NCBI GenBank assembly: GCA_965223985.1
Contig: OZ245030.1
Location: 1,924,029-1,988,028, forward strand
DNA from: Candidatus Poribacteria bacterium
GTDB lineage: Bacteria > Poribacteria > WGA-4E > PCPOR2b
Direction of reading: 5' to 3'
DNA: 64,000 nt
Both the position numbers and the translations under genes were made by a program. Below are positions 24,012 through 41,811 of the stretch, piece after piece (the stretch's first letter is position 1; every line of letters starts with the position of its first letter). The notes under the pieces were generated by a model. That model had not been told where the DNA came from. It saw nothing but the letters and a program-made list of their open reading frames with translations, and did not search any database.

Positions 24012-26030
24012 TTAAGGTACTGCTGAAGTTGTTGGATAAGAAATGTTTGGAGCCCGTTCCCTCCCTGATTCGTGCAACTGGGATGGAAGCAGTGCCGGAA
24101 CGCAAATGCCGCTAATAAAGGTCTCAATTAGTTGGATATACTCATCGAGCTGTTGTGCAATCTGATTGAATTTCTGAGTGGCGTTTTCGCGTACCTGCTT
24201 GTTGAAATCCGCGACATCACGCCGAACAAGTTGAACGTAATCTTCGTTCCACTCGTTGTCAATATATTGTCCATTGTTGGTGCAAATTCCTTTTAAATCC
24301 CCGGCAATTTTCATGAGGCGATTTGATGTAGTGTTCTTTATAGTCTTATCAATTTCAGCCGTCAGTCGGGCAAGTGTTCCAATGAATTCAAGTTCAAAAG
24401 CCCTGATATCGCCCGTTGGTTCATTTTTCATCAATTCCACAAGCTGATTGGAAATCTCATGTAACCCACGGGACTGCTTCAGATGCAGTAACACAAGTAT
24501 GTAGCTTGATTTTGCCAACCTCAATGCAACATCGTAGCAAGAATAGGAAGTCTGGCTTTGAATGTCGTGGACTTCTTTTTGAATTTCGAGCAAGTGTTCA
24601 TAATAACTCGCTTGCTCGCCTTGGATAGCGGAGTAAGTACCCGTGTTCGGGACTTCAAACGCTCTCTTTGTAAGAATTTCACGTTTATCATTGATTTCAC
24701 GATGCCGCTGCATTTCATCCGCATCTTCTAAGGCTTTGGCTAGCGATTCGATAGTTGGCTGAAGTCGATCGATTTGGATGCGAATCGGCGGATAGGCATC
24801 ATAACTTGCATCCGTTGTGATGTTACGAATTTTCCCTAGCACCTCGCCGAGTCTTTCTTCATACGCCTGATCTTCGAGCGGGGAGTATACTTCTTCTTCC
24901 TCCGCTTCCACGCCTATGTCCTCCTCAGCGAGGAATCTGTGCATAAATCGATAAAAATGCTCAAGTTGATTATCTTGAAGGAAACTCGCTTCTACGTAGA
25001 AGTAGAGTTTATCTTTGATAATTGTGCAGCTATCAATCACTGTGGCGCGGTCGAGGCTCAAAGCTGCCAAGCTAAGGTAAAAAAGATCTTCCTCGAGTTC
25101 GGCAAAATGCTTTTCAAAAGCTAGGGCAATTTTTTCGTAGGCTTCATCGGAAATTGATTGATGGCGGGCTTGTTTCGCGATGGTCATGTCATCCGAACGA
25201 TGAAAATCACTAGCTTGTTGACGAGTCTTCGTAATAATCAAAGGCGGATTGTCATCTGCTGAATGACTGGAAGGTTTTCGCATTGACGATTGCTGATTGT
25301 AAAGGTTAAGAGCGGCTTGATAGTGCCGTAGCAGTTCGCCATTACCTAGTTCAATCAACAGCGACTCAATTGTGTTTTTCGGATCGATGGAAATTCCTTC
25401 CTGTGCGAGCAATCTGTTAGATAAAGCGGCGAATCCTTCTCCACCTAAATTCCCAAAAGGACGCAGCAGAAATGCGCGTCCATCCTCAATGTAAATTTTC
25501 TGATTACCAAGTGGAAAGCGGTTCTTGACGTGCCCTCTGTCGTTATCAAACCAGATTTCCATTGGGTAAGTTTTGTTGTAGACCTGAAAATTGATAGCTC
25601 CTTCCAGTAACCGATCGAACAAATCTCGACGGATTTGCTCAAGGTCATTAACATCAATAAGGATTATCGAAGCGTTATCGTTCGTATGCAGCTTTGCTTC
25701 AATGATTTTGTCATTTGGGACCAAATAACGCCGTTCGAAAAAATGAATGCCCGTAACGTTATCGTTCGTGATGGCAAGCCTTGGAATATCATACTCATCG
25801 TAATAATAATATGATTTCCAACTGAGCGCACGCCGTCTCATCTTTTCAAATAACTGGAAGGACAGACGTTGTTTGGCTTTCCTTTCACGTTTTGGCACTG
25901 ATTCTGCCTCATACGGAATAAGCGTCCCCTTTGTATCAGGAACCTGTAAACTGAGTTGTGGTAGCGTAGAAGCTTTTTTCTTACCTGGAAGGCGGGTGAG
26001 CGCTTTATCAATAATATTCTTTCCAATCAA
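24012..26030 (-). CDS. Large hypothetical protein (672 aa), no recognisable domain
   Basis: Long uninterrupted ORF; first gene of a same-strand block with the 572-aa protein and the ABC permease. Confidence 0.4.
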   Translation of the reverse strand: MIGKNIIDKALTRLPGKKKASTLPQLSLQVPDTKGTLIPYEAESVPKRERKAKQRLSFQLFEKMRRRALSWKSYYYYDEYDIPRLAITNDNVTGIHFFERRYLVPNDKIIEAKLHTNDNASIILIDVNDLEQIRRDLFDRLLEGAINFQVYNKTYPMEIWFDNDRGHVKNRFPLGNQKIYIEDGRAFLLRPFGNLGGEGFAALSNRLLAQEGISIDPKNTIESLLIELGNGELLRHYQAALNLYNQQSSMRKPSSHSADDNPPLIITKTRQQASDFHRSDDMTIAKQARHQSISDEAYEKIALAFEKHFAELEEDLFYLSLAALSLDRATVIDSCTIIKDKLYFYVEASFLQDNQLEHFYRFMHRFLAEEDIGVEAEEEEVYSPLEDQAYEERLGEVLGKIRNITTDASYDAYPPIRIQIDRLQPTIESLAKALEDADEMQRHREINDKREILTKRAFEVPNTGTYSAIQGEQASYYEHLLEIQKEVHDIQSQTSYSCYDVALRLAKSSYILVLLHLKQSRGLHEISNQLVELMKNEPTGDIRAFELEFIGTLARLTAEIDKTIKNTTSNRLMKIAGDLKGICTNNGQYIDNEWNEDYVQLVRRDVADFNKQVRENATQKFNQIAQQLDEYIQLIETFISGICVPALLPSQLHESGRERAPNISYPTTSAVP

Positions 26031-26746
26031 TCATTTTCATCTCCTTAAGCGACATCATATGATCCTTGATGCTGATAATTTGGCATATGACTATGAATCT
26101 ATAGGGTGTTGGTGTGCTAGGTGGGCGACGCTGCTATCAGCGACCAATTGTTGCGTATGCTTGAACCTGAAAGCGATATTTTCACTAACACCTCTAGGAG
26201 CAAGCTTGAAAAGTCGGAGGCAAACCATTTTCTAGCCGTGCGTGGGTCAGAATCATCGAATTTTCAAGGGATTGACCCGAAGTTAACCCTTTCCAAGACG
26301 GATTTGGAATATTAAAACGGGTTCGAAGTAAAGCGAAGACGTGAACAACGTGACAAGAGGGTCAAAATTTGTTATGAGCAAGTGAATCGACTGAATATAG
26401 AGCTTGACCAACTGAAAAAACCGTACCGAGCATCCGTCTTATTCATTTAAGCGTTTGAACTCAAATTGTAGTTTCATTTTGTGAAAAAATATCGTATAAA
26501 TATTGTATAATTGAGTAGTATTAGGGTTGTTGTTAAACGGAATAAAACGTTAGCTAAAACCCGTTCTATGGCACATCACGATTTGTGTCGCAGGACACAT
26601 ATATTTCGACAGAGAGAAGGTTCATTAAGGCGTAAACGATTTCCGCGTCAATTTAAGAGAACTTGACGGCCGTATAGAAATATCTAAGACTCCGACGCAC
26701 GCCTAAAACTCCAAATATTGTAGCATAGCTCCACATGTAAAAGAAG

Positions 26747-27023
26747 AAAAATAAACCCTATAGTTGGTCGTTACCAACAATTAGTAATGAGTTACGACCC
26801 ATTTGTGGTAAAGTTGCCTTCAGAAGAAGATTTAAAGAAGGCGCTGTTGCTGTTAGATTTGTTGGTAGAAGACTTTCGACAAATCCCTCGGCTTTCTGAA
26901 CCAATTGGAACACTTTGTTTCGTCGCTTCTCGATTTTAAGACGTTTGAAAGGAAGATGACGGATCTTATAGAAGGTATTAGAGAAATTATTGAGAGAGCG
27001 TTCGATAATGTCCTCGCTCAATA
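26747..27023 (+). pseudogene. Degenerate 5' duplicate of the 27273-28127 gene
   Basis: ~90% nucleotide identity to 27245-27545, but ATG is followed directly by TAA and single-nt indels break the frame. Confidence 0.6.
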
Positions 27024-27272
27024 ATGTAGTTTCATTTTATGGCAATATATTGTATAATGAATAGGTTGAAGGCTGTAAAATTGAGTAAGCCGTAAGGAAA
27101 AACCGCTCTTGACTCACCACAATTCATGTCTTAGGACACATAATTTCGGCAAATGTGATGTTTTAGTAATGTGTTTTCAACAACCGTAAAATTCTAAGAA
27201 ACTACGCCGAATACGACAATGTAGAATTCCGGTGCATGTCCAAACGCACGAAATATTATAGCATAGCTCCAC

Positions 27273-28127
27273 ATGGAAGAAAATAAAAATAAACCCATAG
27301 TTGGTCGATACCAACAATTAGTAATGAGTTACGGCCCATCTTTGGTAAAGTTGCCTTCAGAAGAAGATTTAAAGAAGGCGCTGTTACTGTTAGATTTGTT
27401 GGTAGGAGACTTCGAAAAATCCCTCGGCTTTCTGAACCAATTGGAACACTTTGTTTCGTCGCCTCTCGATTTTAAGACCTTTGAAAGGAAGATGACGGAT
27501 CTCATAGAAGGTACCAGAGAAATTGCTGAAAGGGCACTCGATAATTACCACTACCTCTCGGGGAATCTCAAGGACATTTATACTATTTTTACTCAGACCG
27601 TTGAATCGGAAAATGCCATCGGTGAAACTCATGAAAGTATCAATGTTCGGTTCAAATTTTGGCTTCACTCATATCGGACTGAAAATGCGGGCGAGGGAAA
27701 GGGCTCAAAGGAAATACAGACCTTTTCTGAATTTATTCAGTTGCTGTCAAATGAACAATCGGGATATAGATATTTTATTTCTCCCCTTGGGGAAACGCAC
27801 TTTCTCATCTGCCAGTATGCCCCTCTTGAAAGTAGTCCAGAGAAGATTGAGCTCCATTTCTCCACGTATGTGGAACCGCCGGACACTTCCTTTCAAAGCT
27901 TGAAACGGGCATGGAATAAATTGTTCAGCGCCGCCAATAAAAGGGTTTACCATGTTTTCCGCGACTCACCCCCAAACTCTACAATTGGAACATTCAAGGA
28001 GCGATTGTCGGTTTCCATTCCGCCCTATACACCTCATCGCTACAATTACCCGGAACAGCTTACCAAGGTATCTATGACTTCATTAACGTTTACGGCGTTG
28101 ACGGGCGCCGACATATCCACCTGCTGA
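27273..28127 (+). CDS. Hypothetical protein (284 aa)
   Basis: Intact ORF downstream of a TATAAT-containing duplicated leader. Confidence 0.45.
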   Translation: MEENKNKPIVGRYQQLVMSYGPSLVKLPSEEDLKKALLLLDLLVGDFEKSLGFLNQLEHFVSSPLDFKTFERKMTDLIEGTREIAERALDNYHYLSGNLKDIYTIFTQTVESENAIGETHESINVRFKFWLHSYRTENAGEGKGSKEIQTFSEFIQLLSNEQSGYRYFISPLGETHFLICQYAPLESSPEKIELHFSTYVEPPDTSFQSLKRAWNKLFSAANKRVYHVFRDSPPNSTIGTFKERLSVSIPPYTPHRYNYPEQLTKVSMTSLTFTALTGADISTC

Positions 28128-28839: not shown

Positions 28840-29856
28840 ATGCAAACGCGGAAAATAAACTCAACGGTTGTGTTCGTTGGCGTGCTACTCTTGGGCAGCG
28901 CCGCTGTGCTTATGATTGCTCAAGCACAAGCCCCTATACGTTCAACTATTGCCGTTGCTACTTCTGGAGCGGAGGGATTCGGAATCTTTATCGTGGATCC
29001 CAAGAGACCGCAAGGCGGTACAGTGCAGCTCCTAGAGGTTGAAGGGGACCCAATTCCCGGCGGATTAGAGTGGTCTCCGGACGGCACTAAGATTGCTTTC
29101 CATACCCAAGTTGGACAGAATATAGATGTCTACGTTGTCGATGGTGACGGGGACGGTCTCAAACAGCTCACCGGCCATGAGGGGGAAGATAGCTGGCCCG
29201 CTTGGCACCCCAGCGGTCAAAAACTAGCCTTCACCAGCAATCGGGATGGCAACCTTGAGATTTACACCATGACATCGGGTGGGGTAGTTATCGGAAACTT
29301 AACAAACGATCCTGCTCCGGATCAGCATCCTGCTTGGTCTCCGAACGGTCGCAACATTGCTTTTGCCACCAAGCGCGGTCGTACTATCTCTGATGTCTGG
29401 CTTATGGATTCGGCGGGAGATAACCCACACAATCTAACCAACCACAAGGGAGAAGACGTTGAACCTTCGTGGTCGTGGGACAGCCAAAAGATTGCTTTTA
29501 CCACCCGTCGGTTTGGATCTGGGCGTGCTATGACAATGGACCCTGATGGTGGTAGCTTGCTGAAGATTTCGGGACCGGACGTTGAGCGAAGAGACCCCGA
29601 GTTTTCTCCAGATGGAAAAGAAATCGCCACTGTGTGGTTTGGGGGTGGTCAGACACGCTTGGATATATATTCAAGCAATGGCAAACATGCGGATGCAGAC
29701 CAACACGGGGCGCCAGTGTGGGATATCATCGATCTCGGATTCCCGAGCCGGGGTCCAGCCTGGTTTGACCCTGATTTTGTAGTACCGTTCTCTGTTTCCT
29801 CTACGGACAAACGCCCTTTGAGCTGGGGCTGGCTAAAGAGGGCAGGGCTTGAGTAA
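28840..29856 (+). CDS. TolB-like periplasmic beta-propeller protein (PD40 repeats), paralog 1
   Basis: Signal peptide ending AQAQAP; repeated …NRDGNLEIY… / …PAWSPNG…IAF… PD40 units; conserved C-terminal tail DKRPLSWGWLK. Confidence 0.75.
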   Translation: MQTRKINSTVVFVGVLLLGSAAVLMIAQAQAPIRSTIAVATSGAEGFGIFIVDPKRPQGGTVQLLEVEGDPIPGGLEWSPDGTKIAFHTQVGQNIDVYVVDGDGDGLKQLTGHEGEDSWPAWHPSGQKLAFTSNRDGNLEIYTMTSGGVVIGNLTNDPAPDQHPAWSPNGRNIAFATKRGRTISDVWLMDSAGDNPHNLTNHKGEDVEPSWSWDSQKIAFTTRRFGSGRAMTMDPDGGSLLKISGPDVERRDPEFSPDGKEIATVWFGGGQTRLDIYSSNGKHADADQHGAPVWDIIDLGFPSRGPAWFDPDFVVPFSVSSTDKRPLSWGWLKRAGLE

Positions 29857-30005
29857 TGATTCTTCCAATTCACTCAGTCGACTTTCTGAAAAATTCTGTT
29901 GGCCCATGTCAAAAGCAAGCGGATTGGGCATAAAAAGGTGCCAAGACACTTTGGGATAGGATGTCAACGTCGAACCGATGAAAATCATCATGGGGAGGAT
30001 GCATC

Positions 30006-31025
30006 ATGCAACTCCAGAAATCGCATTTAAGATTGGCAATATCTATGGGTATACTTTTCTTGAGCAGCATTGCCGTATTGATGATTGCTCAAGCACAAGC
30101 ACCTGACCGTTCAACAATTGCTATTGCCACGGGGATAGAGGGATTTGGAATTTATCTGCTCGACCCTGATAAACCAGCAGCTCATGCAGAGAAGCTCCTC
30201 GAAATTGAAGGGGATCCCATCCCCGGCGGGTTGGAGTGGTCTCAGGATGGCACTAGGATTGCTTTCCATACCCAAGTTGGACAGAATATAGATGTCTTCG
30301 TGGTCAGTGGTGATGGGAACGGTCTCAAACAGCTCACCGACCATGAAGCGGAAGATAGCTGGCCCGCTTGGCACCCCAGCAGTCAAAAGCTGGCCTTCAC
30401 CAGCAATCGGGATGGCAACCTTGAGATTTACACCATGACATCGGGTGGGGTAGTTATCGGAAACTTAACAAACGATCCTGCTCCGGATCGGCATCCCGCT
30501 TGGTCTCCGAACGGTCGCAACATTGCTTTTGCTACCAAGCGTGGGCGGACGCTGTCAGATATCTGGCTGATGGACTCCGCGGGAGGCAACCTTAAAAATC
30601 TAACCAACCACAAGGGTGAAGATCTTACCCCCTCGTGGTCATGGGACGGTCAAACGATTGCCTTTACCACCCGTCGGTTTGGAGCTGGTCGTACAATGCG
30701 GATGGACGCCGATGGTGGTAATCTGCTGACGATTTCTGCGCGTCAAGTTCCGCGGTTAGACCCCGAATTTTCTCCGGATGGGAAAGAAATCGCCAACGTG
30801 TGGTTTGGAGGCGGTCAGACGCGTCTCCATATATGGCCAAGCGATGGGAAGCTTGCGGACGCTGACGAACACGCGGCACCGGTGTGGAAAGAAATAGATC
30901 TAGGATTCCCGAGTGCGGGACCGGCCTGGTTTGACCCTGATTTTGTGGTACCGTTCTCTGTTTCCTCTGCGGACAAACGCCCTTTGAGCTGGGGCTGGCT
31001 AAAGAGCGCCGGACTTGAGAACTAG
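30006..31025 (+). CDS. TolB-like periplasmic beta-propeller protein, paralog 2
   Basis: Very similar to paralog 1 (long identical stretches); same signal peptide and C-terminal tail. Confidence 0.75.
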   Translation: MQLQKSHLRLAISMGILFLSSIAVLMIAQAQAPDRSTIAIATGIEGFGIYLLDPDKPAAHAEKLLEIEGDPIPGGLEWSQDGTRIAFHTQVGQNIDVFVVSGDGNGLKQLTDHEAEDSWPAWHPSSQKLAFTSNRDGNLEIYTMTSGGVVIGNLTNDPAPDRHPAWSPNGRNIAFATKRGRTLSDIWLMDSAGGNLKNLTNHKGEDLTPSWSWDGQTIAFTTRRFGAGRTMRMDADGGNLLTISARQVPRLDPEFSPDGKEIANVWFGGGQTRLHIWPSDGKLADADEHAAPVWKEIDLGFPSAGPAWFDPDFVVPFSVSSADKRPLSWGWLKSAGLEN

Positions 31026-31220
31026 CAGGTGATAGATGCTGTTATTGTCCGCTGAGATAATTTGGCACGTAGATGCCATTTTACTGAGTGTGTTCACTTC
31101 TGTAGTGAATTCCTGCTTAACAATTGATGAAGAGACATAGAAACGCGGCGGTTGCCGTGAACTTTTAAATCATTCAATCCTGATTTGTGGTCAGGGTTTC
31201 GTGAAAGGAGACAAAAGACT

Positions 31221-32246
31221 ATGCAACATCCAGTAACAGTTGTACGTCTAAGCATATTGGCGAGTGTATTCCTCGTGGGTTGTTTTGCGCTAATCCTGAG
31301 TGCACATGCTCAGGCACCCAATGGTCCTACCATCGCAGTTGCTAGTTTAGGGGACGGTGGGACGCTCTGGCTCATAGATAAGGATGGAGAACAAGCGCGC
31401 GCAATACACGACATTGAGGGGGATCCGGTAGTCTTAGGGTTGTCGTGGTCCCCGGACGGTAATAAGATTGCGTTCTTTTCTGAAAAGAAGAAGGACGTAG
31501 AAAGTGATGTGTACGTGGTGGATGCCGACGGTAAGGGGCTCAGAAATCTCACAGACCGTCAAGGGTTTGATGGCTGGCCCACTTGGCACCCCAGCGGGCA
31601 AAGGCTTGCCTTCACTACCGATCGAGATGGCAACCTTGAAATTTACACGATGTCGGCTCAAGGAATCATCGGTGGCAACCTCACGAACGATGCCGTTCCT
31701 GACCAAATGCCCACTTGGTCACCAGATGGTCGTAAGATTGCCTTTGCCACTAAACGAGGGAAGACACTAGGTGACATCTGGGTGATGGACACCAGCGGAG
31801 GCAGCCTCCAGAACCTGACCGAGCATAGGGGGCAGGACATCGAACCTCGATTTGCCTTCGACTCTAAAAAGATCGCTTGGACAACACGGCGGTTTGGGGA
31901 AGGAGCAATCATGGTCATGGATGCCGATGGACAGAATCAAGTACAGATTTCCCCTAACCCTGAAAATGAAAAGCGAGATCCTGCATTTTCGCCCGACGGT
32001 AAAAAAATCATCTACGTAAGATTCGGTGGGGGTCAGGCGAATATTCAGAAACGGTCGGTAAAACAGTTTGCAAAAGGAGTGCCGAATGTATGCGGGGGTG
32101 ATTGTTTTGAACTTCCGGGGATAGGTTTCCCAACACGTTCACCGGTGTGGTTTGACCCAGATTTTGTGGTTGAGTGGGCGGTTTCTCCTGCGGACAAACG
32201 TCCAATGACATGGGGCTGGATAAAACAGTTGGGGCAGAGCAGATAA
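31221..32246 (+). CDS. TolB-like periplasmic beta-propeller protein, paralog 3 (diverged)
   Basis: ORF 31185-32246, likely start ATG 31221 after AAAGGAG; signal peptide AHAQAP; PD40 repeats; tail DKRPMTWGWIK. Confidence 0.7.
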   Translation: MQHPVTVVRLSILASVFLVGCFALILSAHAQAPNGPTIAVASLGDGGTLWLIDKDGEQARAIHDIEGDPVVLGLSWSPDGNKIAFFSEKKKDVESDVYVVDADGKGLRNLTDRQGFDGWPTWHPSGQRLAFTTDRDGNLEIYTMSAQGIIGGNLTNDAVPDQMPTWSPDGRKIAFATKRGKTLGDIWVMDTSGGSLQNLTEHRGQDIEPRFAFDSKKIAWTTRRFGEGAIMVMDADGQNQVQISPNPENEKRDPAFSPDGKKIIYVRFGGGQANIQKRSVKQFAKGVPNVCGGDCFELPGIGFPTRSPVWFDPDFVVEWAVSPADKRPMTWGWIKQLGQSR

Positions 32247-32431
32247 TCACTTGTGCGGAGTCTATCCACCAGATCCAGTGTTGATGGGTACCGAATGGTG
32301 AGAATCAACTTCTTTGAAAGATATAACCAGCAAAGGCGGTAGTGACTGGAAGTTTCCCGGGCATTACAACATGCAATGATGGTTGCGCGGACTTTTTGCA
32401 TAGCCGCGACGAAAAGATCGAATTAGGAGTG

Positions 32432-32878
32432 ATGCAACAATACAGACATACCCAGATTGGTTATCTCCTCATCATCTTGTATAGCGCAGTGGTAGTCTTC
32501 ATAGGCTATGTGAATGTTTTGGTGGGTTTTAACCCGTTTGCCTTAGCCGCTCTAATTGTTATGGTTTTTGTTCTAAGGCTATTCTCTAGTTTGACGGTAG
32601 CGGTCGATGCCAAGATGATTAAGATTCAATTTGGTTTGGGGGTTATTCGTAAGGTTTTTCTGCTAAAGGACGTAGAAACATACTTTGTAGTCAAGAATCC
32701 TTGGTACTACGGTTGGGGGATTAGATTCACTACAAGAGGTTGGCTATTCAATGTTTCTGGTTTCTCGGCAATCGAACTTCAGATGAAGAATGGGAAGAGG
32801 TATCGGATAGGGACGGATGAGCCCGATAATTTAGCGAATGCGCTTACCGAAGCACTGAATGATGTTCCCGTTCAGTAA
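32432..32878 (+). CDS. Small membrane protein with bacterial PH-like domain
   Basis: ORF 32342-32878, likely start 32432 after AGGAG; two TM helices then beta-rich domain. Confidence 0.45.
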   Translation: MQQYRHTQIGYLLIILYSAVVVFIGYVNVLVGFNPFALAALIVMVFVLRLFSSLTVAVDAKMIKIQFGLGVIRKVFLLKDVETYFVVKNPWYYGWGIRFTTRGWLFNVSGFSAIELQMKNGKRYRIGTDEPDNLANALTEALNDVPVQ

Positions 32879-32900
32879 CTCTGCGCATAGAGGAAGAACG

Positions 32901-33686
32901 ATGTTTATTCGTATTGTAACACACGATTCGATTGCATGTATGAGTTTAGTAGCCTTCGCTTGCATCTTCGCAACATCAGGGCATGCAGAGATTGACCCAG
33001 ATACGATTGTAGGGTTGTGGCTCCTCGACGAGGATAAAGGTAGAGAAGCTAAAGATAGCTCAGGCAATGAACTTCACGGGACGTTCACAGGGTCTCCTAA
33101 GTGGAGGGAAGGTAAGTTCGGCCGGGGCCTGGAACTCCCAGGCGGAGGCGATACGGTCAAGATTGAAGGATTTGCCCAGGACTTTCCCACCGAGGAAGTG
33201 ACAATCACATCGTGGGTGAAGGTAGAAGGGTTCAAGAATCAAGACCTTTTTAGTCTCGAACCACTTGACCCTAGTCGCGTCACAGTCCACTTTCCGTGGG
33301 ATAACCAACTTCACTGGCAGTTCAGCACTATATGGATGCATCCACCACTTCCAATTGGTGAGGAGGTTGAAGGCAAATGGCAACATTGGGCTTTCATCCA
33401 TAGTATTGCGGATAACGTAATGCTTGCATATCAGGATGGCGAGGAGGTCGGAAGATCGCAGAACTCCAAAGCGTATGCTCCACGAGCCGGAGATTTTCAC
33501 ATAGGCGGTAGACTAGGTTCTTCTTTTCAGGGTTTCGTTGACGAAGTTGGACTGTTTGAGGCTGTCCTTAGCCAAGCTGATATACAAAGCATTATGGAAA
33601 ACGGTCTTGAGGCGCGAGTCTTTGCAGTTTCGCCAGCCAGCAAGCTTGCGATCTCCTGGGGTCAAATCAAAGCACGAAAGGAATGA
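32901..33686 (+). CDS. Secreted LamG-like (concanavalin A-like/Laminin_G_3) protein, type A copy 1
   Basis: Signal peptide …ATSGHA/EIDPDT; LamG hallmark GFVDEVGLFEAVLSQADIQSIM; C-terminal tail VSPASKLAISWGQIKARKE. Confidence 0.7.
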   Translation: MFIRIVTHDSIACMSLVAFACIFATSGHAEIDPDTIVGLWLLDEDKGREAKDSSGNELHGTFTGSPKWREGKFGRGLELPGGGDTVKIEGFAQDFPTEEVTITSWVKVEGFKNQDLFSLEPLDPSRVTVHFPWDNQLHWQFSTIWMHPPLPIGEEVEGKWQHWAFIHSIADNVMLAYQDGEEVGRSQNSKAYAPRAGDFHIGGRLGSSFQGFVDEVGLFEAVLSQADIQSIMENGLEARVFAVSPASKLAISWGQIKARKE

Positions 33687-33842
33687 TCTCCTGAGGAATT
33701 TCCAGTTTCACCCGTCAAAAAGTCTATTGCCCTGCGGTTGGTTCATGTAGGTGAGGTACGCGCCGTCGAGAGAAATCGTGTGGCTCACAGAACCACAGTA
33801 GAATTTTGAAACATATCAAACTATTTATAGGAGAAAAAAACG

Positions 33843-34640
33843 ATGTTTGATCGGATTGTAACAAGATTTTCGATTGTATGTATGAGTTTAGTAGCCTTCG
33901 GGTGGATTCTCGTAACATCAGGGTATGCAGAGATCGACCCAGATACCATTAGAGGGTTGTGGCTCCTTGACGAGGGCAAAGGAAAGGATGCCAAGGATGG
34001 CTCGGACAATGAACGTCACGGGACGTTCACGGGAACTCCCAAATGGAGGGAAGGTAAATTCGGCCAGGCCGTTGAGTTTGGAGGTGCAGGCGACACCGTC
34101 AAGATTGAAGGATTTGGCATGGAATTTCCCTCGGAGGAAGTGACAATTACGTCGTGGGTGAAGTTAGAGGGGTTCAGGAATCAAGACCTTTTTAGTCTCG
34201 TGCCGCTTGAGGTTGGTAACAAGGGCCGCGTCACAGTCCACTTTCCCTGGGATAACGCTGTTCACTGGCAGTTCGGCACGCCTTTTACGGGGATTGCACC
34301 GGTTGCGCTCGACAAGGCGGTGGAAGGCAAATGGCAGCACTGGGCTTTCATTCATAGTGTTAAAGAAAACGTGTTTCTTGTGTATCAGGATGGCGAGGAA
34401 GTGCGAAGGACAGCGAATTCGCAAGCGTTTGTTCCAGGAGCCGCAGATTTTCACATAGGTGGTAGACTGGGTTCTTCTTTTGAGGGTTTCGTTGACGAAG
34501 TTGGAGTTTTTGAGGCTGTCCTTAGCCAAGCTGACATAAAAAGCATCATGGAAAATGGTCTTGAAGCGCGCGTCTTTGCTGTGTTGCCAGCCAGCAAACT
34601 TGCGACTTCCTGGGGTCGAATCAAAGTGAAAAGGGAGTAA
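33843..34640 (+). CDS. Secreted LamG-like protein, type B copy 1
   Basis: Paralog with EVGNKGRVTV variant; tail LPASKLATSWGRIKVKRE. Confidence 0.7.
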   Translation: MFDRIVTRFSIVCMSLVAFGWILVTSGYAEIDPDTIRGLWLLDEGKGKDAKDGSDNERHGTFTGTPKWREGKFGQAVEFGGAGDTVKIEGFGMEFPSEEVTITSWVKLEGFRNQDLFSLVPLEVGNKGRVTVHFPWDNAVHWQFGTPFTGIAPVALDKAVEGKWQHWAFIHSVKENVFLVYQDGEEVRRTANSQAFVPGAADFHIGGRLGSSFEGFVDEVGVFEAVLSQADIKSIMENGLEARVFAVLPASKLATSWGRIKVKRE

Positions 34641-34819
34641 CCCCGGGCGCGCCGCCGCGGGGGGAATTGTCCTATCTTTGTATTCAACACTTGTCTTTAA
34701 TCCATGTGCGACCAAACCCTTGCGAAGGTTTCAAACCTTCGCAAGGGTAAACCTCGCTGGCACACCATATCGTCTCTACACCATTGAGTGAGATTGGGAA
34801 ACATTGGAGATTTGCCGCA

Positions 34820-34940
34820 ATGAAGACGCACCATTAGTGAAGCAAAGCTGACCGATATGTAGGTCATGGAGTTCTGTAGAAACGAGTTCTTCATGTTTGA
34901 AAGCGTAGTTCCGCATGAATTTAATCAACGAACCATCTAC
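34820..34940 (+). pseudogene. 5' remnant of a PhyH-family dioxygenase gene
   Basis: ~120 nt alignable to the first 130 nt of the gene at 36810 (ATGAAGACGCACCATTAG…), with a stop at codon 6. Confidence 0.6.
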
Positions 34941-34960
34941 ATTTGTCGGAGGCAAAAACG

Positions 34961-35743
34961 ATGTTTATTCGCACTATAGCAAGATTTTCGATTGCATGTA
35001 TGAGTTTAGTAGTCTTCGCTTGCATCTTCGCAACATCAGGGCATGCAGAGATTGACCCAGATACGATTGTAGGGTTGTGGCTCCTCGACGAGGATAAAGG
35101 CAGAGAAGCTAAAGATAGCTCAGGCAATGAACTTCACGGGACGTTCACGGGATCTCCTAAGTGGAGGGAAGGTAAGTTCGGCCGGGGCTTGGAGTTCCCG
35201 GGAGGGGGCGATACTGTCAAAATTGAAGGATTTGCCCAGGACTTTCCCACGGAAGAAGTGACAATCACATCGTGGGTGAAAGTAGAGGGGTTCAAGAATC
35301 AAGACCTTTTTAGTATGGAACCGCTTGACCCTAGTCGCGTCACAGTCCACTTTCCGTGGGATGGCCACCTTCACTGGCAGTTTAGCAATACGGGTATGGC
35401 TCCAATTCTGATTGGCGAAGCGGTAAAAGGGAAATGGCAACACTGGGCTTTCATCCATAGTGTTGCGGATAACGTGATGCTCGCCTATCAGGATGGCGAG
35501 GAGGTCCGAAGAACATCGGTTTCAAATGCGTATGTTCCGCGGGCCGGAAGTTTTCACATAGGCGGCAGACTGGGTTCTTCGTTTCAGGGTTTCGCTGACG
35601 AAGTTGGCCTGTTTGAGGCTGTCCTTAGCCAAGCTGACATAAAAAGCATCATGGAAAACGGTCTCGAGGCTCGCGTTTTTGCGGTTTCGCCAGCCAGCAA
35701 ACTTGCAACTTCTTGGGGTCAAATCAAGGCAGGAAGAGAGTGA
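34961..35743 (+). CDS. Secreted LamG-like protein, type A copy 2
   Basis: Near-identical over long stretches to 32901-33686; tail VSPASKLATSWGQIKAGRE. Confidence 0.7.
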   Translation: MFIRTIARFSIACMSLVVFACIFATSGHAEIDPDTIVGLWLLDEDKGREAKDSSGNELHGTFTGSPKWREGKFGRGLEFPGGGDTVKIEGFAQDFPTEEVTITSWVKVEGFKNQDLFSMEPLDPSRVTVHFPWDGHLHWQFSNTGMAPILIGEAVKGKWQHWAFIHSVADNVMLAYQDGEEVRRTSVSNAYVPRAGSFHIGGRLGSSFQGFADEVGLFEAVLSQADIKSIMENGLEARVFAVSPASKLATSWGQIKAGRE

Positions 35744-35879
35744 ATCCCAAACACCTATTCACTGTGGTTTGTTCAAGTAGTTGGGGTAAGCGCTGTCCAG
35801 CGATATTGTGTGGCTGGGAGAGCCACAGTAAAATTTTGAAACGCATCAAGCTATTTCTATTTGTAGGAGGAAAAGAACG

Positions 35880-36680
35880 ATGTTTGTACGTATTGTAACA
35901 AGCGTTTCAATTGCATGTATGAGTTTAGTAGCCTTCAGTTGGATCTTTACAACATCATCAGGGTATGCAGAGATCGACCCAGATACCATTAGAGGGTTGT
36001 GGCTCCTTGACGAGGGCAAGGGAAAGGACGCCAAGGATAGATCGGGCAATGAACTTCACGGGACGTTCACGGGAACTCCCAAATGGAGGGAAGGTAAATT
36101 CGGTCAGGCCGTTGAGTTTGGAGGTGCAGGCGACACCGTCAAAATTGAAGGATTTGGCCTGGAATTTCCCGCGGAGGAAGTGACAATCACATCGTGGGTA
36201 AAGGTAGAGGGGTTCAAGAATCAAGACCTTTTTAGTCTCGAGCCGCTTGAGGTTGGTAACAAAGGCCGCGTCACAGTCCACTTTCCCTGGGACAACGGTG
36301 TTCACTGGCAGTTCGGCACCCCTTTTACGGGGATTGATCCAATTCCGCTCGACAAAGCGGTAAAAGGTAAATGGCAGCACTGGGCTTTCATCCATAGTGT
36401 TGTAGAAAACATGTTCCTTGTCTATCAGGATGGCGAGGAAGTGAAAAAAACACCGAGGTCAAAGGCGTTTGTTCCAGGAGCCGCAGATTTTCACATAGGC
36501 GGTAGACTGGGTTCTTCTTTTGAGGGTTTCGTTGACGAAGTTGGAGTTTTTGAGGCTGTCCTTAGCCAAGCTGACATAAAAAGCATCATGGAAAATGGTC
36601 TTGAAGCGCGTGTCTTTGCGGTTGCGCCAGCCAACAAACTTGCGACCTCCTGGGGCAAAATCAAGGCACAAAGAGAGTGA
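35880..36680 (+). CDS. Secreted LamG-like protein, type B copy 2
   Basis: Near-identical to 33843-34640; tail VAPANKLATSWGKIKAQRE. Confidence 0.7.
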   Translation: MFVRIVTSVSIACMSLVAFSWIFTTSSGYAEIDPDTIRGLWLLDEGKGKDAKDRSGNELHGTFTGTPKWREGKFGQAVEFGGAGDTVKIEGFGLEFPAEEVTITSWVKVEGFKNQDLFSLEPLEVGNKGRVTVHFPWDNGVHWQFGTPFTGIDPIPLDKAVKGKWQHWAFIHSVVENMFLVYQDGEEVKKTPRSKAFVPGAADFHIGGRLGSSFEGFVDEVGVFEAVLSQADIKSIMENGLEARVFAVAPANKLATSWGKIKAQRE

Positions 36681-36809
36681 CCCAGAGACCACCTCGTTTT
36701 GCGCATTTTAACACCTGTTCTTGCGATTCATGCGCGGCTAAACCCTTAGCGGGACTAGCCGAGCGATCAATTGCGGGTTAGATTAGGAACATATTGGAGA
36801 TCGACCACA

Positions 36810-37592
36810 ATGCAAACGCACGATTGCGAAGCAACGCTGACCGATTCGCAGGTCTTGGAATTCTGTAAAAATGGGTTCTTAATGTTTGAAGGCGTTGTTC
36901 CAGATGAAATTAATCAGCGGGTCTATGAATATTGCGATGACCATGAAGGTCAGGTACCTGCGGGCGAAGACTGGTACATTGAGAACGTCACGCTTAATCC
37001 ACAAGTGACCGGTGCGATACGATCCGTCTTGGGCAAGAATTTCCGTTATAATCTTTTCGCCGGCAATCATCGAGTCCAGGGTCCGACCCACATGACCGGC
37101 GGGTGGCACAACGATGGGGGATCTGTTTACAAGCCCGATCTTGATTCCTTGCAGGTATTTTACTATCCACAGGACACCCCCGTTGCACTTGGACCGACCG
37201 AAGTGGTTCCCGGTTCACATTTTCTCGTCCATTTGCAGCGCTGGATGGGACACTACACGGGCATCAAAGGAGCGGTCTCTACAGAAGCGCCCGCAGGCTC
37301 GATTTTTCTCACTATCTATTCTGTTTGGCATCGGCGGAGCACCTCTACAGCGAGCGGCATCCGTAATCTGATTAAGTATTGGTATATACGCACGTCGCCG
37401 CCGGAGCGTGACTGGGCTATCGAACCAGATTTTGACCTCGTACGCCCCTATCATTTCCCACCTGGTCCAACCTTCCACAGGGAACATCACCACACAATCA
37501 ATGACGCTGCTGAGATTTATTATTGGTTGTGCGGAAAACACGGCGAATATCGCGGTCACACTAACAATTTGCCCGTCTATTTCTCTAGATAG
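36810..37592 (+). CDS. PhyH-family Fe(II)/2-oxoglutarate dioxygenase, paralog 1
   Basis: HxD motif (WHNDGG) and distal His (PGSHF); no signal peptide. Confidence 0.7.
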   Translation: MQTHDCEATLTDSQVLEFCKNGFLMFEGVVPDEINQRVYEYCDDHEGQVPAGEDWYIENVTLNPQVTGAIRSVLGKNFRYNLFAGNHRVQGPTHMTGGWHNDGGSVYKPDLDSLQVFYYPQDTPVALGPTEVVPGSHFLVHLQRWMGHYTGIKGAVSTEAPAGSIFLTIYSVWHRRSTSTASGIRNLIKYWYIRTSPPERDWAIEPDFDLVRPYHFPPGPTFHREHHHTINDAAEIYYWLCGKHGEYRGHTNNLPVYFSR

Positions 37593-37606
37593 GGAGGGAT
37601 ACTACT

Positions 37607-38398
37607 TTGGGCAGCCATGACTTCGAACCAACACTGACAGATACGCAAGTTCTTGAGTTTTGCAGAGATGGGTTCTTAATGTTCAAAGGTGTCGTGCCGG
37701 ATGAAATTAATCGACGGGTCTTTGACTATTGCGACGCACACGATGGCAACGTACCAGCAGGCGAGGATTGGTATATTGATAATGTGACGCTTAATCCGCA
37801 AGCGGCTGGTGCGATACGGTCTCTTTTAGGCAAAAACTTCCGTTGGTCAGGGGCGGGCAACCACCGCATCCGATGCCCGGTTCAAGAATTACACCAGCAA
37901 TCGAACGGTTTGTGGCATAACGACGGAGGCTCCGTATACACGCCGGAGATTGATTGCCTGCAAGTGTTTTATTACCCACAGGATACCCCTGTGGAGCTAG
38001 GTCCAACAGAGGTGGTGCCTAGTTCTCATTTTCTCCACAGTTACCATTTCTGGATGGGCCATTATGGCAGGATTCGGAGTGCAGTTTCCACAGCAGCGCC
38101 GGCAGGCTCGATTTTTCTCACCATCTACCGCATTTGGCATCGGCGCAGTCCGTCTACAGCAAGCGGTATTCGCAATCTAATTAAGTATTCGTACATACGA
38201 ACTGTACCGCCCGAGCACGATTGGATTATTGAGCCGGGGTTCGATCTCGCGCATACCTATCACGCGCCGCCCGGTCCACAGTTCCACCGAGAATACCACC
38301 GCACTATCAATGACGCCGCTGAGATTTACTTTTGGCTGTGTGGCAAACACAATCAATATCGCGGCGCCCGGAGTAGTTTGCCCATCTATTACTCTTGA
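37607..38398 (+). CDS. PhyH-family dioxygenase, paralog 2
   Basis: ~70% aa identity to paralog 1; WHNDGG / PSSHF. Confidence 0.7.
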   Translation: MGSHDFEPTLTDTQVLEFCRDGFLMFKGVVPDEINRRVFDYCDAHDGNVPAGEDWYIDNVTLNPQAAGAIRSLLGKNFRWSGAGNHRIRCPVQELHQQSNGLWHNDGGSVYTPEIDCLQVFYYPQDTPVELGPTEVVPSSHFLHSYHFWMGHYGRIRSAVSTAAPAGSIFLTIYRIWHRRSPSTASGIRNLIKYSYIRTVPPEHDWIIEPGFDLAHTYHAPPGPQFHREYHRTINDAAEIYFWLCGKHNQYRGARSSLPIYYS

Positions 38399-38607
38399 TG
38401 GAAGCGTAATAATTGATAGCGTATGAAGCGGGAACATCCAGTCCAAAAATATCTAGGATGTGGACGTGGCAAAAGAGCAATTCATACGAAGGACGAGCAG
38501 AGGTTTGCTACAAGAATTCGGGATATGTGAAGGCTCAAAATTGAGAAGAGTATAACGAGTGTGGCGATACGGGCAATATTTTATCAAGAGACATATAGGG
38601 TTATCGG

Positions 38608-39396
38608 TTGATGAAAACTTATAACAGTGAGCCTACGCTTACGGACACCCAAGTGCTAGAGTTCTGTAGAGATGGCTTCATGATGCTCAAGGGTGTTGTG
38701 CCAGAAGAGATTAATAAGCAAACATTTGAGTTCCTCGATTTACACCCGCATGGCAAACCAGTTGAAATTCTAAAGGAGGATTGGTTTGTCGAGAACGTGA
38801 TTCTTAATTCGCAGGCAGTGGGTATCGTGCGGTCGCTACTGGGGAAGAACTTTGCGCTCGCCACTCGGATTGCCAATCATCGAGCCGAGTGCCCAGGACC
38901 AGCCCAGCATTGGCACCGAGATGGCGGATCGATTCACAGTCCTGAGATGGATAGTTTACAGGTGTTCTATTATCCTCAGGACACCCCGCTTGAACTAGGC
39001 CCAACACAGGTGGTGCCCGGTTCCCACCTGCTCTTCTCTTTGCAGAGCCATATGAGACATTATGGCAGTATACGAGTTGCTCATTCCGCAGTAGCCCCCG
39101 CAGGCTCAATTTTCATCACGATGTATTCCATTTGGCACCGCCGCGGCCCATCCACGTCGCATGGTACGCGCAATCTGCTGAAATATTGGTACCGGCGAAC
39201 TGTGCCTCCCGAACGCGACTGGGTTATTGAACAGGAGTTCAATCTTCAGCAGGCTTATCATTTCTCGCACGGCATAACCTTCAATCGAGAAGGTCACAAG
39301 ACCATTAATGACGCTGCCGAGATTTATTTTTGGCTGTGCGGCAAGCACGACCAATATCGCGCGCGCACTAACAATTTGCCCGTCTATTTCTCTTGA
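38608..39396 (+). CDS. PhyH-family dioxygenase, paralog 3
   Basis: WHRDGG / PGSHL motifs. Confidence 0.7.
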   Translation: MMKTYNSEPTLTDTQVLEFCRDGFMMLKGVVPEEINKQTFEFLDLHPHGKPVEILKEDWFVENVILNSQAVGIVRSLLGKNFALATRIANHRAECPGPAQHWHRDGGSIHSPEMDSLQVFYYPQDTPLELGPTQVVPGSHLLFSLQSHMRHYGSIRVAHSAVAPAGSIFITMYSIWHRRGPSTSHGTRNLLKYWYRRTVPPERDWVIEQEFNLQQAYHFSHGITFNREGHKTINDAAEIYFWLCGKHDQYRARTNNLPVYFS

Positions 39397-39408
39397 GAGG
39401 AGGGGGCA

Positions 39409-40251
39409 TTGGAAACACATGACTGTGAGCCGACGTTGACCGACACACAAGTGGTCGAGTTCTGCAAGCAGGGCTACCTAATGTTGAAGGGTGTTGTGCC
39501 GGAGGAGATTAACCGGCGTGTGTGTGAATGTGTGGGGGGTGGCTTCGAAGATGGGAGACTGCTTCAAGAGGACTGGTTTCGTGATAGCGTGATTCTCAAT
39601 CAGCAGGCGGCTGGAGCGGTGCGGTCGCTGTTGGGAAAGCAGTTTTCCACACCGGTTGGGTTGTACAATCATCGGGTTGAGTGTCCTGCTCCATCTCAGC
39701 ATTGGCACCGGGACGGGGGATCGCGTCACGAACCAGAACTAAATCATTTGCAGGTGTTCTATTATCCGAAGGATACTCCAGTAGAGCTTGGGCCAACAGA
39801 GGTATTACCTTGTTCCCATTTTTTCTTCTGCTTCCAGAGTTGGATGGAGCACTACGCCAACATAAAGGGGACGATTAAAACAGCCGCGCCGGCGGGTTCG
39901 ATTTTCATCACGGTTTATTCGATATGGCATCGGCGTCCTGTTTCTACCGGGCATGGCGTTCGCGATATGTTGAAATACTGCTATTGGCGAACGGTACCAC
40001 CTCAACGGGATTGGGTTGTCGAACCCGACTTCGATCCGGCAACTGCCTCATATAGCCTGAATGGCGCAATTTCCCAGCCGCCTCGGCAGCAGTTTGACGA
40101 TTGGAACGATGCTGCGCGGATGTTTTACTGGTTGTGTGGAGAGTCCAACGAGTTGCACACAGTATTGGGCGGCGAGGGATGGCCTCCAGGATATCCCCCA
40201 CCCCGTCCTGATGGTCAGATATATCCGCCCAAAGGATTCCGCCGGTTTTGA
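39409..40251 (+). CDS. PhyH-family dioxygenase, paralog 4, with Pro/Gly-rich C-terminal extension
   Basis: WHRDGG / PCSHF; extra tail GGEGWPPGYPPPRPDGQIYPPKGFRRF. Confidence 0.65.
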   Translation: METHDCEPTLTDTQVVEFCKQGYLMLKGVVPEEINRRVCECVGGGFEDGRLLQEDWFRDSVILNQQAAGAVRSLLGKQFSTPVGLYNHRVECPAPSQHWHRDGGSRHEPELNHLQVFYYPKDTPVELGPTEVLPCSHFFFCFQSWMEHYANIKGTIKTAAPAGSIFITVYSIWHRRPVSTGHGVRDMLKYCYWRTVPPQRDWVVEPDFDPATASYSLNGAISQPPRQQFDDWNDAARMFYWLCGESNELHTVLGGEGWPPGYPPPRPDGQIYPPKGFRRF

Positions 40252-40758
40252 ATAATTTAATCTCCAGCGCAGATTCTCATCAACTGTAGATCCCGGTAAT
40301 TGACGCCGAAAAGAGGAGAACCACAACACCCTGTTGTTGAGGACGGCAAACCCGCACACTCCCCCATCGGGTGCAGCACGCAGAAACCTACTCGGTTCCG
40401 CAGGAAAGTCAAGCGTGCCTGACCATCCATGATGAAGTTGATTGTTCTCTGTACGTCGCCGATGATAGTGCCTTTCCAGAAGAAGTCAATCTCGCTTCGT
40501 CTGTTTTCTACGTCGAAAGTAATGTGGAAGGAGTCAATAGTGTGCTCGATTTGCAGACACGAGAGAGCCGATGGCAGAGTGTTCCAGTTAGATCTCGAAT
40601 GGCTACGTACACCCGGCGGAGGATTTCTTGATTGCCCAGCCGAATATAGCGCAAATCGCCTGCTTCAAAGATTAGCGATAAGGGCCCGGCGCGGAGTTGC
40701 TTCCGGTCGGGCAGGGGCTCATCTTTTCCGTAATACAACGTTCTAAGTGGCAGTTGGT

Positions 40759-41811
40759 TCATTTTGCCTCTGTCGTGCGGGCTGCATAGCGACGCAACTT
40801 CTCTTGCAGGCAAATGTGGTCGAGGACCTCACGGTTCACTACGCTGCGTGGAATCTGTCCAGTTGCGACATCCAGAATACTTTGACATGCATCGCGCCCC
40901 ATAGCCTGGAAACATTCGTCTGTCCAGCAGATGGAGTGTGGCGTGACAATGACGTTATCTAGTGTCAGGATGGGATGATTTTTATCGATCGGTTCCTCCT
41001 CGAACACATCCAGCCCAGCACCGCGGATACGCCTTTCCCGCAGCGCGTCGGTGAGCGCGTCTTGATCTACGATGGGGCCGCGGGCAGTGTTGATTAGGTA
41101 AGCAGTTTTTTTCATCAGCGCAAGCCGTTCTGCGTTAATGAGGTGACGGGTCTCCGGAGTTAGAGCGCAGCAGATACAGACGAAGTCCGCTGTTTGGAGC
41201 AAGGTTTCTAGATTCATCAGTTCCACACCCGTTCCAGCCACTTCTGCTGTGCGTACGTAGGGATCGTATGCCAAGTGGCGCATCCCAAACGGCTGAACTA
41301 GGGCGAATACCTCGCGTCCGATATTGCCCAAGCCGACCATGCCGAGCGCACGTCCGGTGAGGCCCATTCCCATAGCGTCAAGCCGGTCTGTCCAGCGCCC
41401 GGAGCGAGTCAGATGGTCTTTGATAAGCAACTTGTGGCTGAGCGCTAGAATAAAAGCTATGATGGACGATGCCACAGGACGCCGTACGCCATCAGGTGTG
41501 ATGGTCAACAACACTCCATTCTTCGTACAGGCTTCCACATCCACTGTGTCGTACCCCACCCCAAACCGTGCTAAGATCGCTAGGCGATCCGCCCTATGCA
41601 ATGTGTCAGCGGTCACCCGCCGTCCGAGCAAGAACAACCCGTCATAATCCTGCACATGGTCTGCGTGCAACGTCTGGGCGTCATCTGCCAAGAGTTCGTA
41701 TTCCACACCCGGCGCGGTAGCTAGCAGGCTCAAGCCCATGTTGTCAAAGCTGAACGTGCCATCTGGTCTGACGAAGTCGCGGGTGATTCCGACGCGAAAT
41801 GTCTGACGCAT
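40759..41811 (-). CDS. D-isomer-specific 2-hydroxyacid dehydrogenase family protein
   Basis: ORF 40759-41853, likely start 41811 after AAGGAGAG; NAD-binding GLGNIGREV. Confidence 0.75.
   Translation of the reverse strand: MRQTFRVGITRDFVRPDGTFSFDNMGLSLLATAPGVEYELLADDAQTLHADHVQDYDGLFLLGRRVTADTLHRADRLAILARFGVGYDTVDVEACTKNGVLLTITPDGVRRPVASSIIAFILALSHKLLIKDHLTRSGRWTDRLDAMGMGLTGRALGMVGLGNIGREVFALVQPFGMRHLAYDPYVRTAEVAGTGVELMNLETLLQTADFVCICCALTPETRHLINAERLALMKKTAYLINTARGPIVDQDALTDALRERRIRGAGLDVFEEEPIDKNHPILTLDNVIVTPHSICWTDECFQAMGRDACQSILDVATGQIPRSVVNREVLDHICLQEKLRRYAARTTEAK

Follow-up and report, generated by a model that had tools for sequence, protein, structure and literature searches.

A C-terminal tag shared by exported LamG and PD40 proteins of a Candidatus Poribacteria gene array that also encodes PhyH-type dioxygenases

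In known C-terminal sorting systems, unrelated signal-peptide proteins of one lineage carry one common C-terminal element behind a variable linker. This is the case for the C-terminal domain (CTD) of the type IX secretion system (T9SS), PEP-CTERM with exosortase, LPXTG with sortase and GlyGly-CTERM with rhombosortase. The element sits at the very C-terminus, outside the functional fold. An element of this kind is found in a stretch of 64,000 nucleotides (nt) from a Candidatus Poribacteria bacterium (contig OZ245030.1 of assembly GCA_965223985.1, positions 1,924,029 to 1,988,028; the window hereafter). An array at 28840-40251 of the window consists of twelve co-oriented open reading frames (ORFs), all on the + strand, which encode three PD40 propellers (P1-P3), a small membrane protein (M), four LamG proteins (L1-L4) and four PhyH-type dioxygenases (D1-D4). 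All seven exported proteins of the array end in the same tag. PEP-CTERM, LPXTG and GlyGly-CTERM signals have a transmembrane helix and a basic cluster, and the T9SS domain is a beta-sandwich of 70-100 amino acids (aa), whereas the Poribacteria tag of about 20 residues has none of these.

The array as a whole can be compared with two further descriptions. Polysaccharide utilisation loci are conceptually alike in that exported binders are co-located with cytoplasmic enzymes, but SusC/SusD, transporters, glycoside hydrolases and regulators are all absent from the array. PhyH is described in passages of Kamke (2014; PMC3909097) as the most abundant Pfam family of Poribacteria, with at least 1.9% of genes, mostly without assigned function. 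D1-D4 belong to this already published expansion. The same passages contain no arrays combining PhyH with exported LamG or PD40 proteins, and the present dioxygenases form a distinct subfamily with at least 53% identity across phyla. Poribacteria are dominant uncultivated sponge symbionts, and since 2014 no explanation has been given for their very large PhyH family or for their many exported "eukaryote-like" repeat proteins. An earlier note on this DNA, made by a model from the sequence, held that the combination of genes has no description as a system, and we agree. The array itself is an expansion of families already known as inflated in Poribacteria; the novelty is the shared C-terminal tag.

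A C-terminal tag on exported proteins of different folds

The seven exported proteins end with [FW]-[AS]-V-[SLA]-[PS]-x-x-K-[LR]-x-x-[ST]-W-G-x-[IL]-K, followed by 4-6 residues. One example lies at 36612-36677 (+), at the end of L4 (VFAVAPANKLATSWGKIKAQRE), and its equivalents are encoded on the same strand at 29785-29853, 30951-31022, 32172-32243, 33618-33683, 34572-34637 and 35675-35740. The tag of P1 reads ...FSVSSTDKRPLSWGWLKRAGLE and that of P3 ...WAVSPADKRPMTWGWIKQLGQSR. Within the window, the core WGx[ILVM]K stands 4-6 residues before the stop codon in precisely these seven ORFs, and the sole other match in six frames is 55 residues away from a stop. In 108 unique tails from related loci the consensus is [AV]-[FL]-[AD]-V-[SE]-P-x-[DG]-K-[LM]-[TA]-T-T-W-[GA]-x-[ILV]-K, followed by 1-7 residues, with V-10, K-5, W0 and K+4 invariant or nearly so. 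The tag is kept in LamG homologs of only 30% overall identity, and in the LamG paralogs nonsynonymous divergence (dN) is minimal in the final two sliding windows, tag included. At the DNA level, the tags of propeller and LamG genes share only 26-36 of 63 nt. Thus, the motif is maintained at the protein level, and recent DNA exchange is ruled out as the origin of the likeness between the two families. The earlier note had mentioned a tail, and missed that it is common to both exported families and to other folds.

Indeed, the tag extends well beyond LamG and PD40 proteins. A hidden Markov model (HMM) of the tail only, 21 positions long, was run against 1.84 billion representative proteins (E<=1e-3) and gave 87 matches, most of them ending a few residues from the protein C-terminus; one match, P0308, is a leucine-rich-repeat false positive. 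The carriers comprise LamG proteins, PD40 and Kelch propellers, a DUF5074-like protein and several families without a Pfam match. Each carrier with a complete N-terminus begins with a signal-peptide-like hydrophobic stretch. The named members of the carrier clusters come from Candidatus Poribacteria or from a Geodia barretti sponge assembly. The tag has no counterpart among the models of Pfam or NCBIfam, either in whole proteins or in isolated tails, and full-text literature searches, made for the motif as well as for Poribacteria together with sorting, gave no relevant description. The tag therefore appears undescribed.

The tag is also separable from the fold that carries it. In the AlphaFold2 model of L4, residues 31-240 reach a pLDDT of at least 90 in each ten-residue block, and the tail at 250-266 stays below 50. 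The earlier note had proposed a structure prediction of LamG with its tail, and this confident core with a low-confidence tail is its outcome. Because of the difference in pLDDT, the tail is taken as not docked on the LamG fold, and a tail that forms part of the LamG fold is ruled out by the model. An element that is common to unrelated exported proteins, fixed at the C-terminus and separable from the fold has the general properties of a sorting tag. From these sequence comparisons it was concluded that the tag is probably a linear C-terminal signal on exported Poribacteria proteins, resembling sorting tags.

Known signals were considered and rejected as its identity. A PEP-CTERM, LPXTG or GlyGly-CTERM signal does not fit, since the proteins end just 1-7 mostly polar residues after W-G-x-I-K and a hydrophobic stretch of at least 15 residues is missing. 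A T9SS CTD does not fit either: the element is about 20 aa long, disordered in the AlphaFold2 model, and without a match in NCBIfam, which presumably includes the T9SS model TIGR04183. In passages of Kamke (2014; PMC3909097), T9SS structural genes are given as absent from Poribacteria, and possible TIGR04183-like C-terminal domains are mentioned on poribacterial WD40-repeat proteins; these are not the present motif. If the tag is such a signal, its carriers form a candidate surface or envelope proteome, and a list of them can be drawn up from sequence. The tag also predicts a recognition partner or pathway, which may be found by phylogenetic profiling, and a tag peptide could serve as bait in pull-downs from enrichments of sponge symbionts.

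Composition, conservation and duplication history of the array

The earlier note counted eleven genes, and the count is twelve (3+1+4+4). Its one-strand arrangement was recovered, with every ORF found at its coordinates on the + strand. Its short spacers with ribosome-binding sites were found in part: the spacers range from -20 to 302 nt (14 nt between D1 and D2, 12 nt between D3 and D4), and GGAGG-like sites stand 5' of P1, P2, L2, L4, D2 and D4. As read from the translations, P1-P3 and L1-L4 start with an h-region followed by AQA/P or GHA/E (...IAQAQA/P; ...SGHA/E), and the N-termini of D1-D4 are hydrophilic without a signal peptide. Thus, the propellers and LamG proteins appear to be exported by Sec and the dioxygenases to be cytoplasmic, as was suggested before. 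The HMM searches proposed in the earlier note place PD40 in the three propellers and Laminin_G_3 in the four LamG proteins above the Pfam cut-offs.

The array is not restricted to a single genome. Over about 22 kb of the window, between about 22.5 and 44 kb, synteny extends to three complete chromosomes (L001, L002 and L003) at 80-90% nucleotide identity, and these share the row P3-M-L-D4 with four or three LamG copies. Counted with the window, the array is kept in at least four related genomes, which is what the neighbourhood comparison suggested by the earlier note gives at this level. Among 79 LamG-related genome loci, every named one is from Poribacteria, as is the single named LamG homolog protein. 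Directly beyond the array, a 101-aa ORF at 40508-40813 (-) is an N-terminal remnant of a gene of 655-660 aa that is intact 3' of D4 in L001 (16725-18707) and L002 (15504-17471); about 1.5 kb has been lost from the window there relative to these two chromosomes.

P1 (28840-29856, 338 aa) has the putative signal peptide ...AVLMIAQAQA/P and a PD40 match with an E-value of 2.4e-30. P2 (30006-31025) is 79% identical to P1. P3 (31185-32246, ATG probably at 31221) is about 50% identical to both and has the strongest of these matches (E 2.2e-36). Each propeller has 3-4 PD40 stretches, and the three lie between E 2e-30 and 2e-36, with 104-124 bits against a cut-off of 20.9. The earlier note called them TolB-like. 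TolB of the Tol-Pal system is likewise a periplasmic PD40-repeat beta-propeller. An identity with TolB was rejected, since the TIGR02800 scores of 153 and 151.5 bits stay below the equivalog cut-off, 343.15, and the best listed stretches fall in model positions 240-343 of 418. These listed stretches lie within the propeller part of the TolB model, and several tagged paralogs are present here. No Tol-Pal families were found among the other annotated window ORFs that were scanned, which are a part of the ORFs. Just 3' of P2, at 31063-31078 (+), lies the sole + strand terminator-like hairpin with a T-run in an intergenic spacer. Given this hairpin, P1 and P2 may be transcribed separately from the remaining genes.

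M (32342-32878, ATG probably at 32432, 148 aa) contains a pair of hydrophobic helices ahead of a C-terminal domain of about 95 aa. The label of a bacterial PH (bPH) domain given to it before has no sequence support: nothing is matched in Pfam even at E<=5, nothing in NCBIfam, and only chance antibody matches appear among PDB sequences. A remote bPH-like fold may still be compatible with these searches. M has homologs in at least 2278 clusters (90% identity), and the listed members are about 70% identical and without a Pfam domain or name. In four of four other genome regions examined (L093, L095, L096 and L097; also on the short contig L094), M stands directly 3' of a PD40 gene of 342-352 aa. 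M of these regions is 72-73% identical to that of the window. A 380-aa PhyH gene follows 0.3-4.2 kb downstream of the PD40-M pair, and each region has a single PD40 and a single PhyH gene rather than an amplified array. The PD40 protein preceding M is tail-less in L093 and L095, the two sequences that were read. L095 also holds a 47%-identical copy of the 2-hydroxyacid dehydrogenase (2-Hacid_dh) encoded downstream of the array in the window. In the four regions examined M further occurs near LPG_synthase_TM, PhyH and FMO genes, with the PD40-M pair conserved. From this recurrent PD40-M-PhyH arrangement, the array looks like a lineage-specific expansion that grew on such a site.

The LamG genes L1 (32859-33686, ATG probably at 32901), L2 (33843-34640), L3 (34943-35743, ATG probably at 34961) and L4 (35880-36680) match Laminin_G_3 (PF13385) with E-values of 1.5e-16, 2.5e-17, 4.4e-16 and 2.4e-16, respectively, and 60-64 bits against a cut-off of 27.6; L3 matches protein P0009. 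The Pfam score, the confident core of the model and the LamG/lectin matches in Foldseek agree in placing them among Laminin_G_3/ConA-like jelly rolls. The best structural match of the core is domain 4 of AbnA, a GH43 arabinanase, where this domain binds arabinan (target-normalised TM 0.77), and the lectin-like domains of trans-sialidases and of botulinum toxin (Hc) and NTNH are also close. These carbohydrate-binding modules differ from the window modules, which are only 9-21% identical to them and are solitary, with a signal peptide and a tag and no catalytic partner. Because no catalytic domain is attached, we infer that the LamG proteins probably bind a ligand or glycan without catalysis. 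PDB sequence searches with L4 and D1 gave no useful match.

The dioxygenase genes are D1 (36771-37592, ATG probably at 36810, with WHNDG and WHRR motifs in its translation), D2 (37607-38398), D3 (38608-39396) and D4 (39409-40251). Against the PhyH (PF05721) cut-off of 22, D1, D2 and D3 score 25.0, 23.6 and 41.2 bits. D4, at 18.3 bits, falls below it, yet it is 52-57% identical to D1-D3. Three of the four PhyH assignments of the earlier note thus pass Pfam. H103, D105, H177 and R188 are invariant in 35 aligned sequences (D1-D4 and 31 homologs), and by position they may be read as the HxD...H...R iron triad and the arginine that binds 2-oxoglutarate (2OG) in Fe(II)/2OG dioxygenases. The D3 model (pLDDT 89.7) has FtmOx1, TlxI/J, SptF, HygX and KanJ as best Foldseek matches, AsqJ and a proline hydroxylase are matched as well, and EctD is the best PDB profile match for the family (E 1e-4). 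With FtmOx1, TlxI/J, SptF, AsqJ, HygX and KanJ the double-stranded beta-helix fold is shared (probability 1.00, TM 0.5-0.6), but these PhyH-type oxygenases that tailor small molecules are only 12-21% identical to D1-D4, and no biosynthetic cluster surrounds the latter. The large subfamily comprises 508 clusters. Identity is 53% or more for the 120 members listed, and the few among them with a name include Planctomycetes, Dehalococcoidia and Abditibacteriaceae. D4 has a proline-rich C-terminal extension that resembles that of homologs in other phyla (L080 and L083).

Outside Poribacteria, the dioxygenase gene has a different companion. In 54 of 80 metagenome loci (L098-L177) it lies directly 3' of a gene for a conserved cytoplasmic protein of about 122 aa without a Pfam match, called S here. 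In Planctomycetes, in Dehalococcoidia and on many metagenome contigs of marine or soil origin, the S gene overlaps or nearly abuts that of the dioxygenase, and examples are found at L080 7627-8004, L083 7626-7994 and L091 9628-9999, with the motifs QDLLYLQA and DGWRVIQFPN[LM]ALMMD. The pair looks like an uncharacterised two-gene module. Neither the window nor any of the 79 LamG-centred loci has a homolog of S, and tagged ORFs lie near the dioxygenase in only 4 of the 80 metagenome contigs; on the short contig L143, S and the dioxygenase are followed by a tagged LamG gene. Other genes also recur in these surroundings. A BNR_2 (sialidase-like) gene stands directly 3' of a PhyH-family gene in the Dehalococcoidia locus L083 (8862-10040, next to a gene of the present subfamily) and in the Poribacteria locus L086 (19274 onward, next to a gene with a faint PhyH match), which may hint at a sugar-type substrate. 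Near the two-gene module, the unrelated genomes L080 and L091 both have genes for Lactamase_B_2 and AP_endonuc_2 (xylose-isomerase-like TIM barrel), and the window has an AP_endonuc_2 gene at 15886-16683 (-).

The array bears traces of its own growth. The LamG genes pair alternately (L1 with L3 at 87% identity, L2 with L4 at 88%), so a two-gene unit was duplicated. The 302-nt spacer between L2 and L3 contains, at 34792-34927 (+), a decayed copy with stop codons of the initial 130 nt or so of D1, which is seen when 34630-34965 is aligned with 36670-36960. Similar stretches between LamG genes in L001 (10943-11110) and L002 (10941-11117) match window positions 36739-36918, the L4-D1 junction. Thus, the duplicated segment was made of two LamG genes and the 5' end of D1, and the stub is the scar of an in-place segmental duplication. 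In P1 and P2, synonymous divergence (dS) is 0.07 over codons about 121-160 and above 1 in some other sliding windows, and this mosaic points to gene conversion. The scar and the mosaic bear out the earlier proposal that three unrelated families were amplified in place. The ratio dN/dS is 0.16-0.29 for the propellers, 0.18-0.28 for the LamG genes and 0.09-0.19 for the dioxygenases in pairs with estimable dS, so all copies are constrained by purifying selection. Between dioxygenase paralogs dS is saturated, and between LamG paralogs it is 0.24-0.55. By this measure the dioxygenase copies appear old and the LamG copies look young, although gene conversion may give the latter a falsely young look. 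The idea of a single co-amplification event, which the earlier note implied, fails on these unlike ages. The LamG paralogs differ mostly at residues about 120-180. Diversifying selection on the LamG and PD40 paralogs was considered and rejected, as dN never exceeds dS in 40-codon sliding windows except at the signal-peptide end of L1/L3. The array is a clean example of family growth, with the scar of a segmental duplication, with gene conversion and with copy numbers that vary between sister species.

Explanations of the array

Taken together, we tentatively favour, with confidence a little short of even, a lineage-specific array of tagged exported binders and cytoplasmic dioxygenases. The makeup of the array, its conservation, its duplication history, the tail left undocked in the model and the place of the tag at the very end of signal-peptide proteins with unrelated folds are shown by the analysis, whereas the roles given below are proposals. 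Repeated in-place segmental duplication and gene conversion appear to have built the array on a PD40-M-PhyH site, and, as a part of the same tentative explanation, it would be vertically inherited within Candidatus Poribacteria, a sponge symbiont. Its seven Sec-exported products would be non-catalytic binding modules: PD40 propellers in three cases and, in the other four, LamG jelly rolls with a likeness to carbohydrate-binding or lectin domains. After Sec export, a partner would read the tag as a signal for sorting or retention, and the binders would come to lie in the envelope or at the cell surface, where they may capture glycans or other ligands derived from the host or from seawater. The paralogs may diversify specificity through the variable stretch at about residues 120-180. 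The dioxygenases would oxidise small molecules in the cytoplasm. They would be tied to the binders at most loosely, by shared regulation or a substrate theme, and not as one machine.

The earlier note suggested a partnership between the hydroxylases and the secreted proteins. Within Poribacteria, this finds some support in recurrent adjacency. For example, the locus L086 has the order LamG-D-LamG-LamG-x-FG-GAP-PhyH-LamG-PhyH-BNR_2, with four tagged LamG and three PhyH genes in about 10 kb. Two tagged PD40 genes stand amid six PhyH genes in L089, and L076 has a LamG gene followed by two dioxygenase genes. The co-occurrence that the earlier note asked about is therefore seen, as interleaving, at non-orthologous Poribacteria loci. 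It is not general: PhyH shows no overall enrichment near LamG-tail genes, and the dioxygenases have another partner outside the phylum. The link between exported proteins and dioxygenases is thus one of recurrent adjacency within Poribacteria, and a loose functional association is plausible but unproven.

Several observations count against the favoured explanation. First, the array is without a transporter. A scan for sigma-70 promoters and terminators gave matches no more frequent than in shuffled sequence, so that co-expression is unproven. Around the LamG-tail genes of 76 other loci, PhyH makes up about 19 of 1236 retained ORFs (about 1.5%), which is not above the genomic frequency (PMC3909097). 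The link to the exported proteins is weakened by the pairing of the dioxygenase with S outside Poribacteria, and the unlike duplication ages of dioxygenase and LamG genes appear to weaken it further. As for the tag, clustering of the gene neighbours of LamG-tail genes for a candidate sorting enzyme gave only house-keeping synteny, and no tag-recognition machinery was identified. Finally, the tag lacks a transmembrane segment or basic anchor, so the analogy with sortase and exosortase would be functional only.

Some of these points speak for a strong alternative, a distinct possibility, in which there is no functional link at all. Three independent tandem expansions of abundant Poribacteria families would then have met at a duplication-permissive spot and would serve unrelated processes. 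The abundance of PhyH in Poribacteria (more than 1.9% of genes in passages of PMC3909097) fits with this, as does its ordinary frequency in the 76 loci, which are non-orthologous. Duplications of the dioxygenases that are far older than those of the LamG genes, and a partner in other phyla that is a small cytoplasmic protein, point the same way. The gene blocks in the array are also separated by spacers of 90-300 nt. However, the gene order is kept in four genomes, the genes at the independent loci L086, L089 and L076 are interleaved and not only adjacent, and a PhyH gene lies within a few kb downstream at the other PD40-M sites examined too. If the adjacency proves functional, it would give the first testable context for the PhyH expansion.

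The next alternative concerns the tag only. E. coli PBP5 has a C-terminal membrane anchor, and the tag may likewise be a short amphipathic C-terminal helix that sticks to the membrane surface and is read by no machinery. In our reading, L, W and I/L/V occupy the positions i, i+4 and i+7, with lysines on either side, and AlphaFold2 draws a helix at 253-265, but with a pLDDT below 50. This alternative is nevertheless unlikely. Such a helix would have just three hydrophobic residues, and the Thr-rich TTW, the conserved Gly/Ala and the invariant upstream V-S-P are more typical of a specific recognition motif. Invariance of the sequence over unrelated carrier folds also exceeds what non-specific membrane binding needs.

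A more far-reaching proposal is that the PhyH-type dioxygenases hydroxylate the tagged proteins before export, with the tag's invariant Lys or Trp as one conceivable site, so that the arrays are sets of enzyme and substrate. Sec substrates are unfolded in the cytoplasm, and access of the enzymes to them is conceivable. The repeated interleaving of tagged and PhyH genes in Poribacteria and the invariant K, W and K positions of the tag agree with it. The proposal is still very improbable, as homologs about 55% identical to the dioxygenases occur in Planctomycetes, Dehalococcoidia and many metagenomes without a nearby tagged protein, the structural neighbours of the array's dioxygenases all act on small molecules, and most tagged genes have no PhyH neighbour. 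The same low standing is given to its wider form, in which the VSP-K-TTWG-IK tail would be the address label of a Poribacteria-specific sorting or surface-display pathway and interleaved PhyH enzymes would hydroxylate the tag or the binders before export. If this were true, the PhyH expansion of Poribacteria would serve the decoration of surface proteins that face the sponge host.

Lastly, an assembly artefact of collapsed repeats, which the mere existence of paralogs could suggest, is as good as dismissed: identity between paralogs is 50-88% for protein and 68-91% for DNA, never complete, so that they are resolved copies, the gene order recurs in an equal genomic context in three independent, related complete chromosomes, and proteins matching L3 (P0009) and D3 are recorded on a contig of 4,691,303 bp. 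The array is thus genuine, and the artefact that the earlier note had named as a danger can be set aside.

Other features of the window

Rfam gave zero matches in the window. A low-GC stretch (0.40-0.44) just upstream of the array, noted at about 26459-27549 and at the ORFs 24012-26030 (-) and 27273-28127 (+), contains large ORFs without a Pfam match. About 550 bp are duplicated in tandem within it, and the sequence ...IRHLPFK.LKIE.RRNKVFQLVQKAEGF is common to the ORFs 26758-27021 and 27390-27668. Farther downstream of the array, an AAA_15/AAA_21 (AbiEii-like) ATPase gene at 52081-53409 (-) is near a gene for an Eco57I/MmeI-type restriction-modification methylase at 57910-60384 (-). These two genes may form a small defence island.

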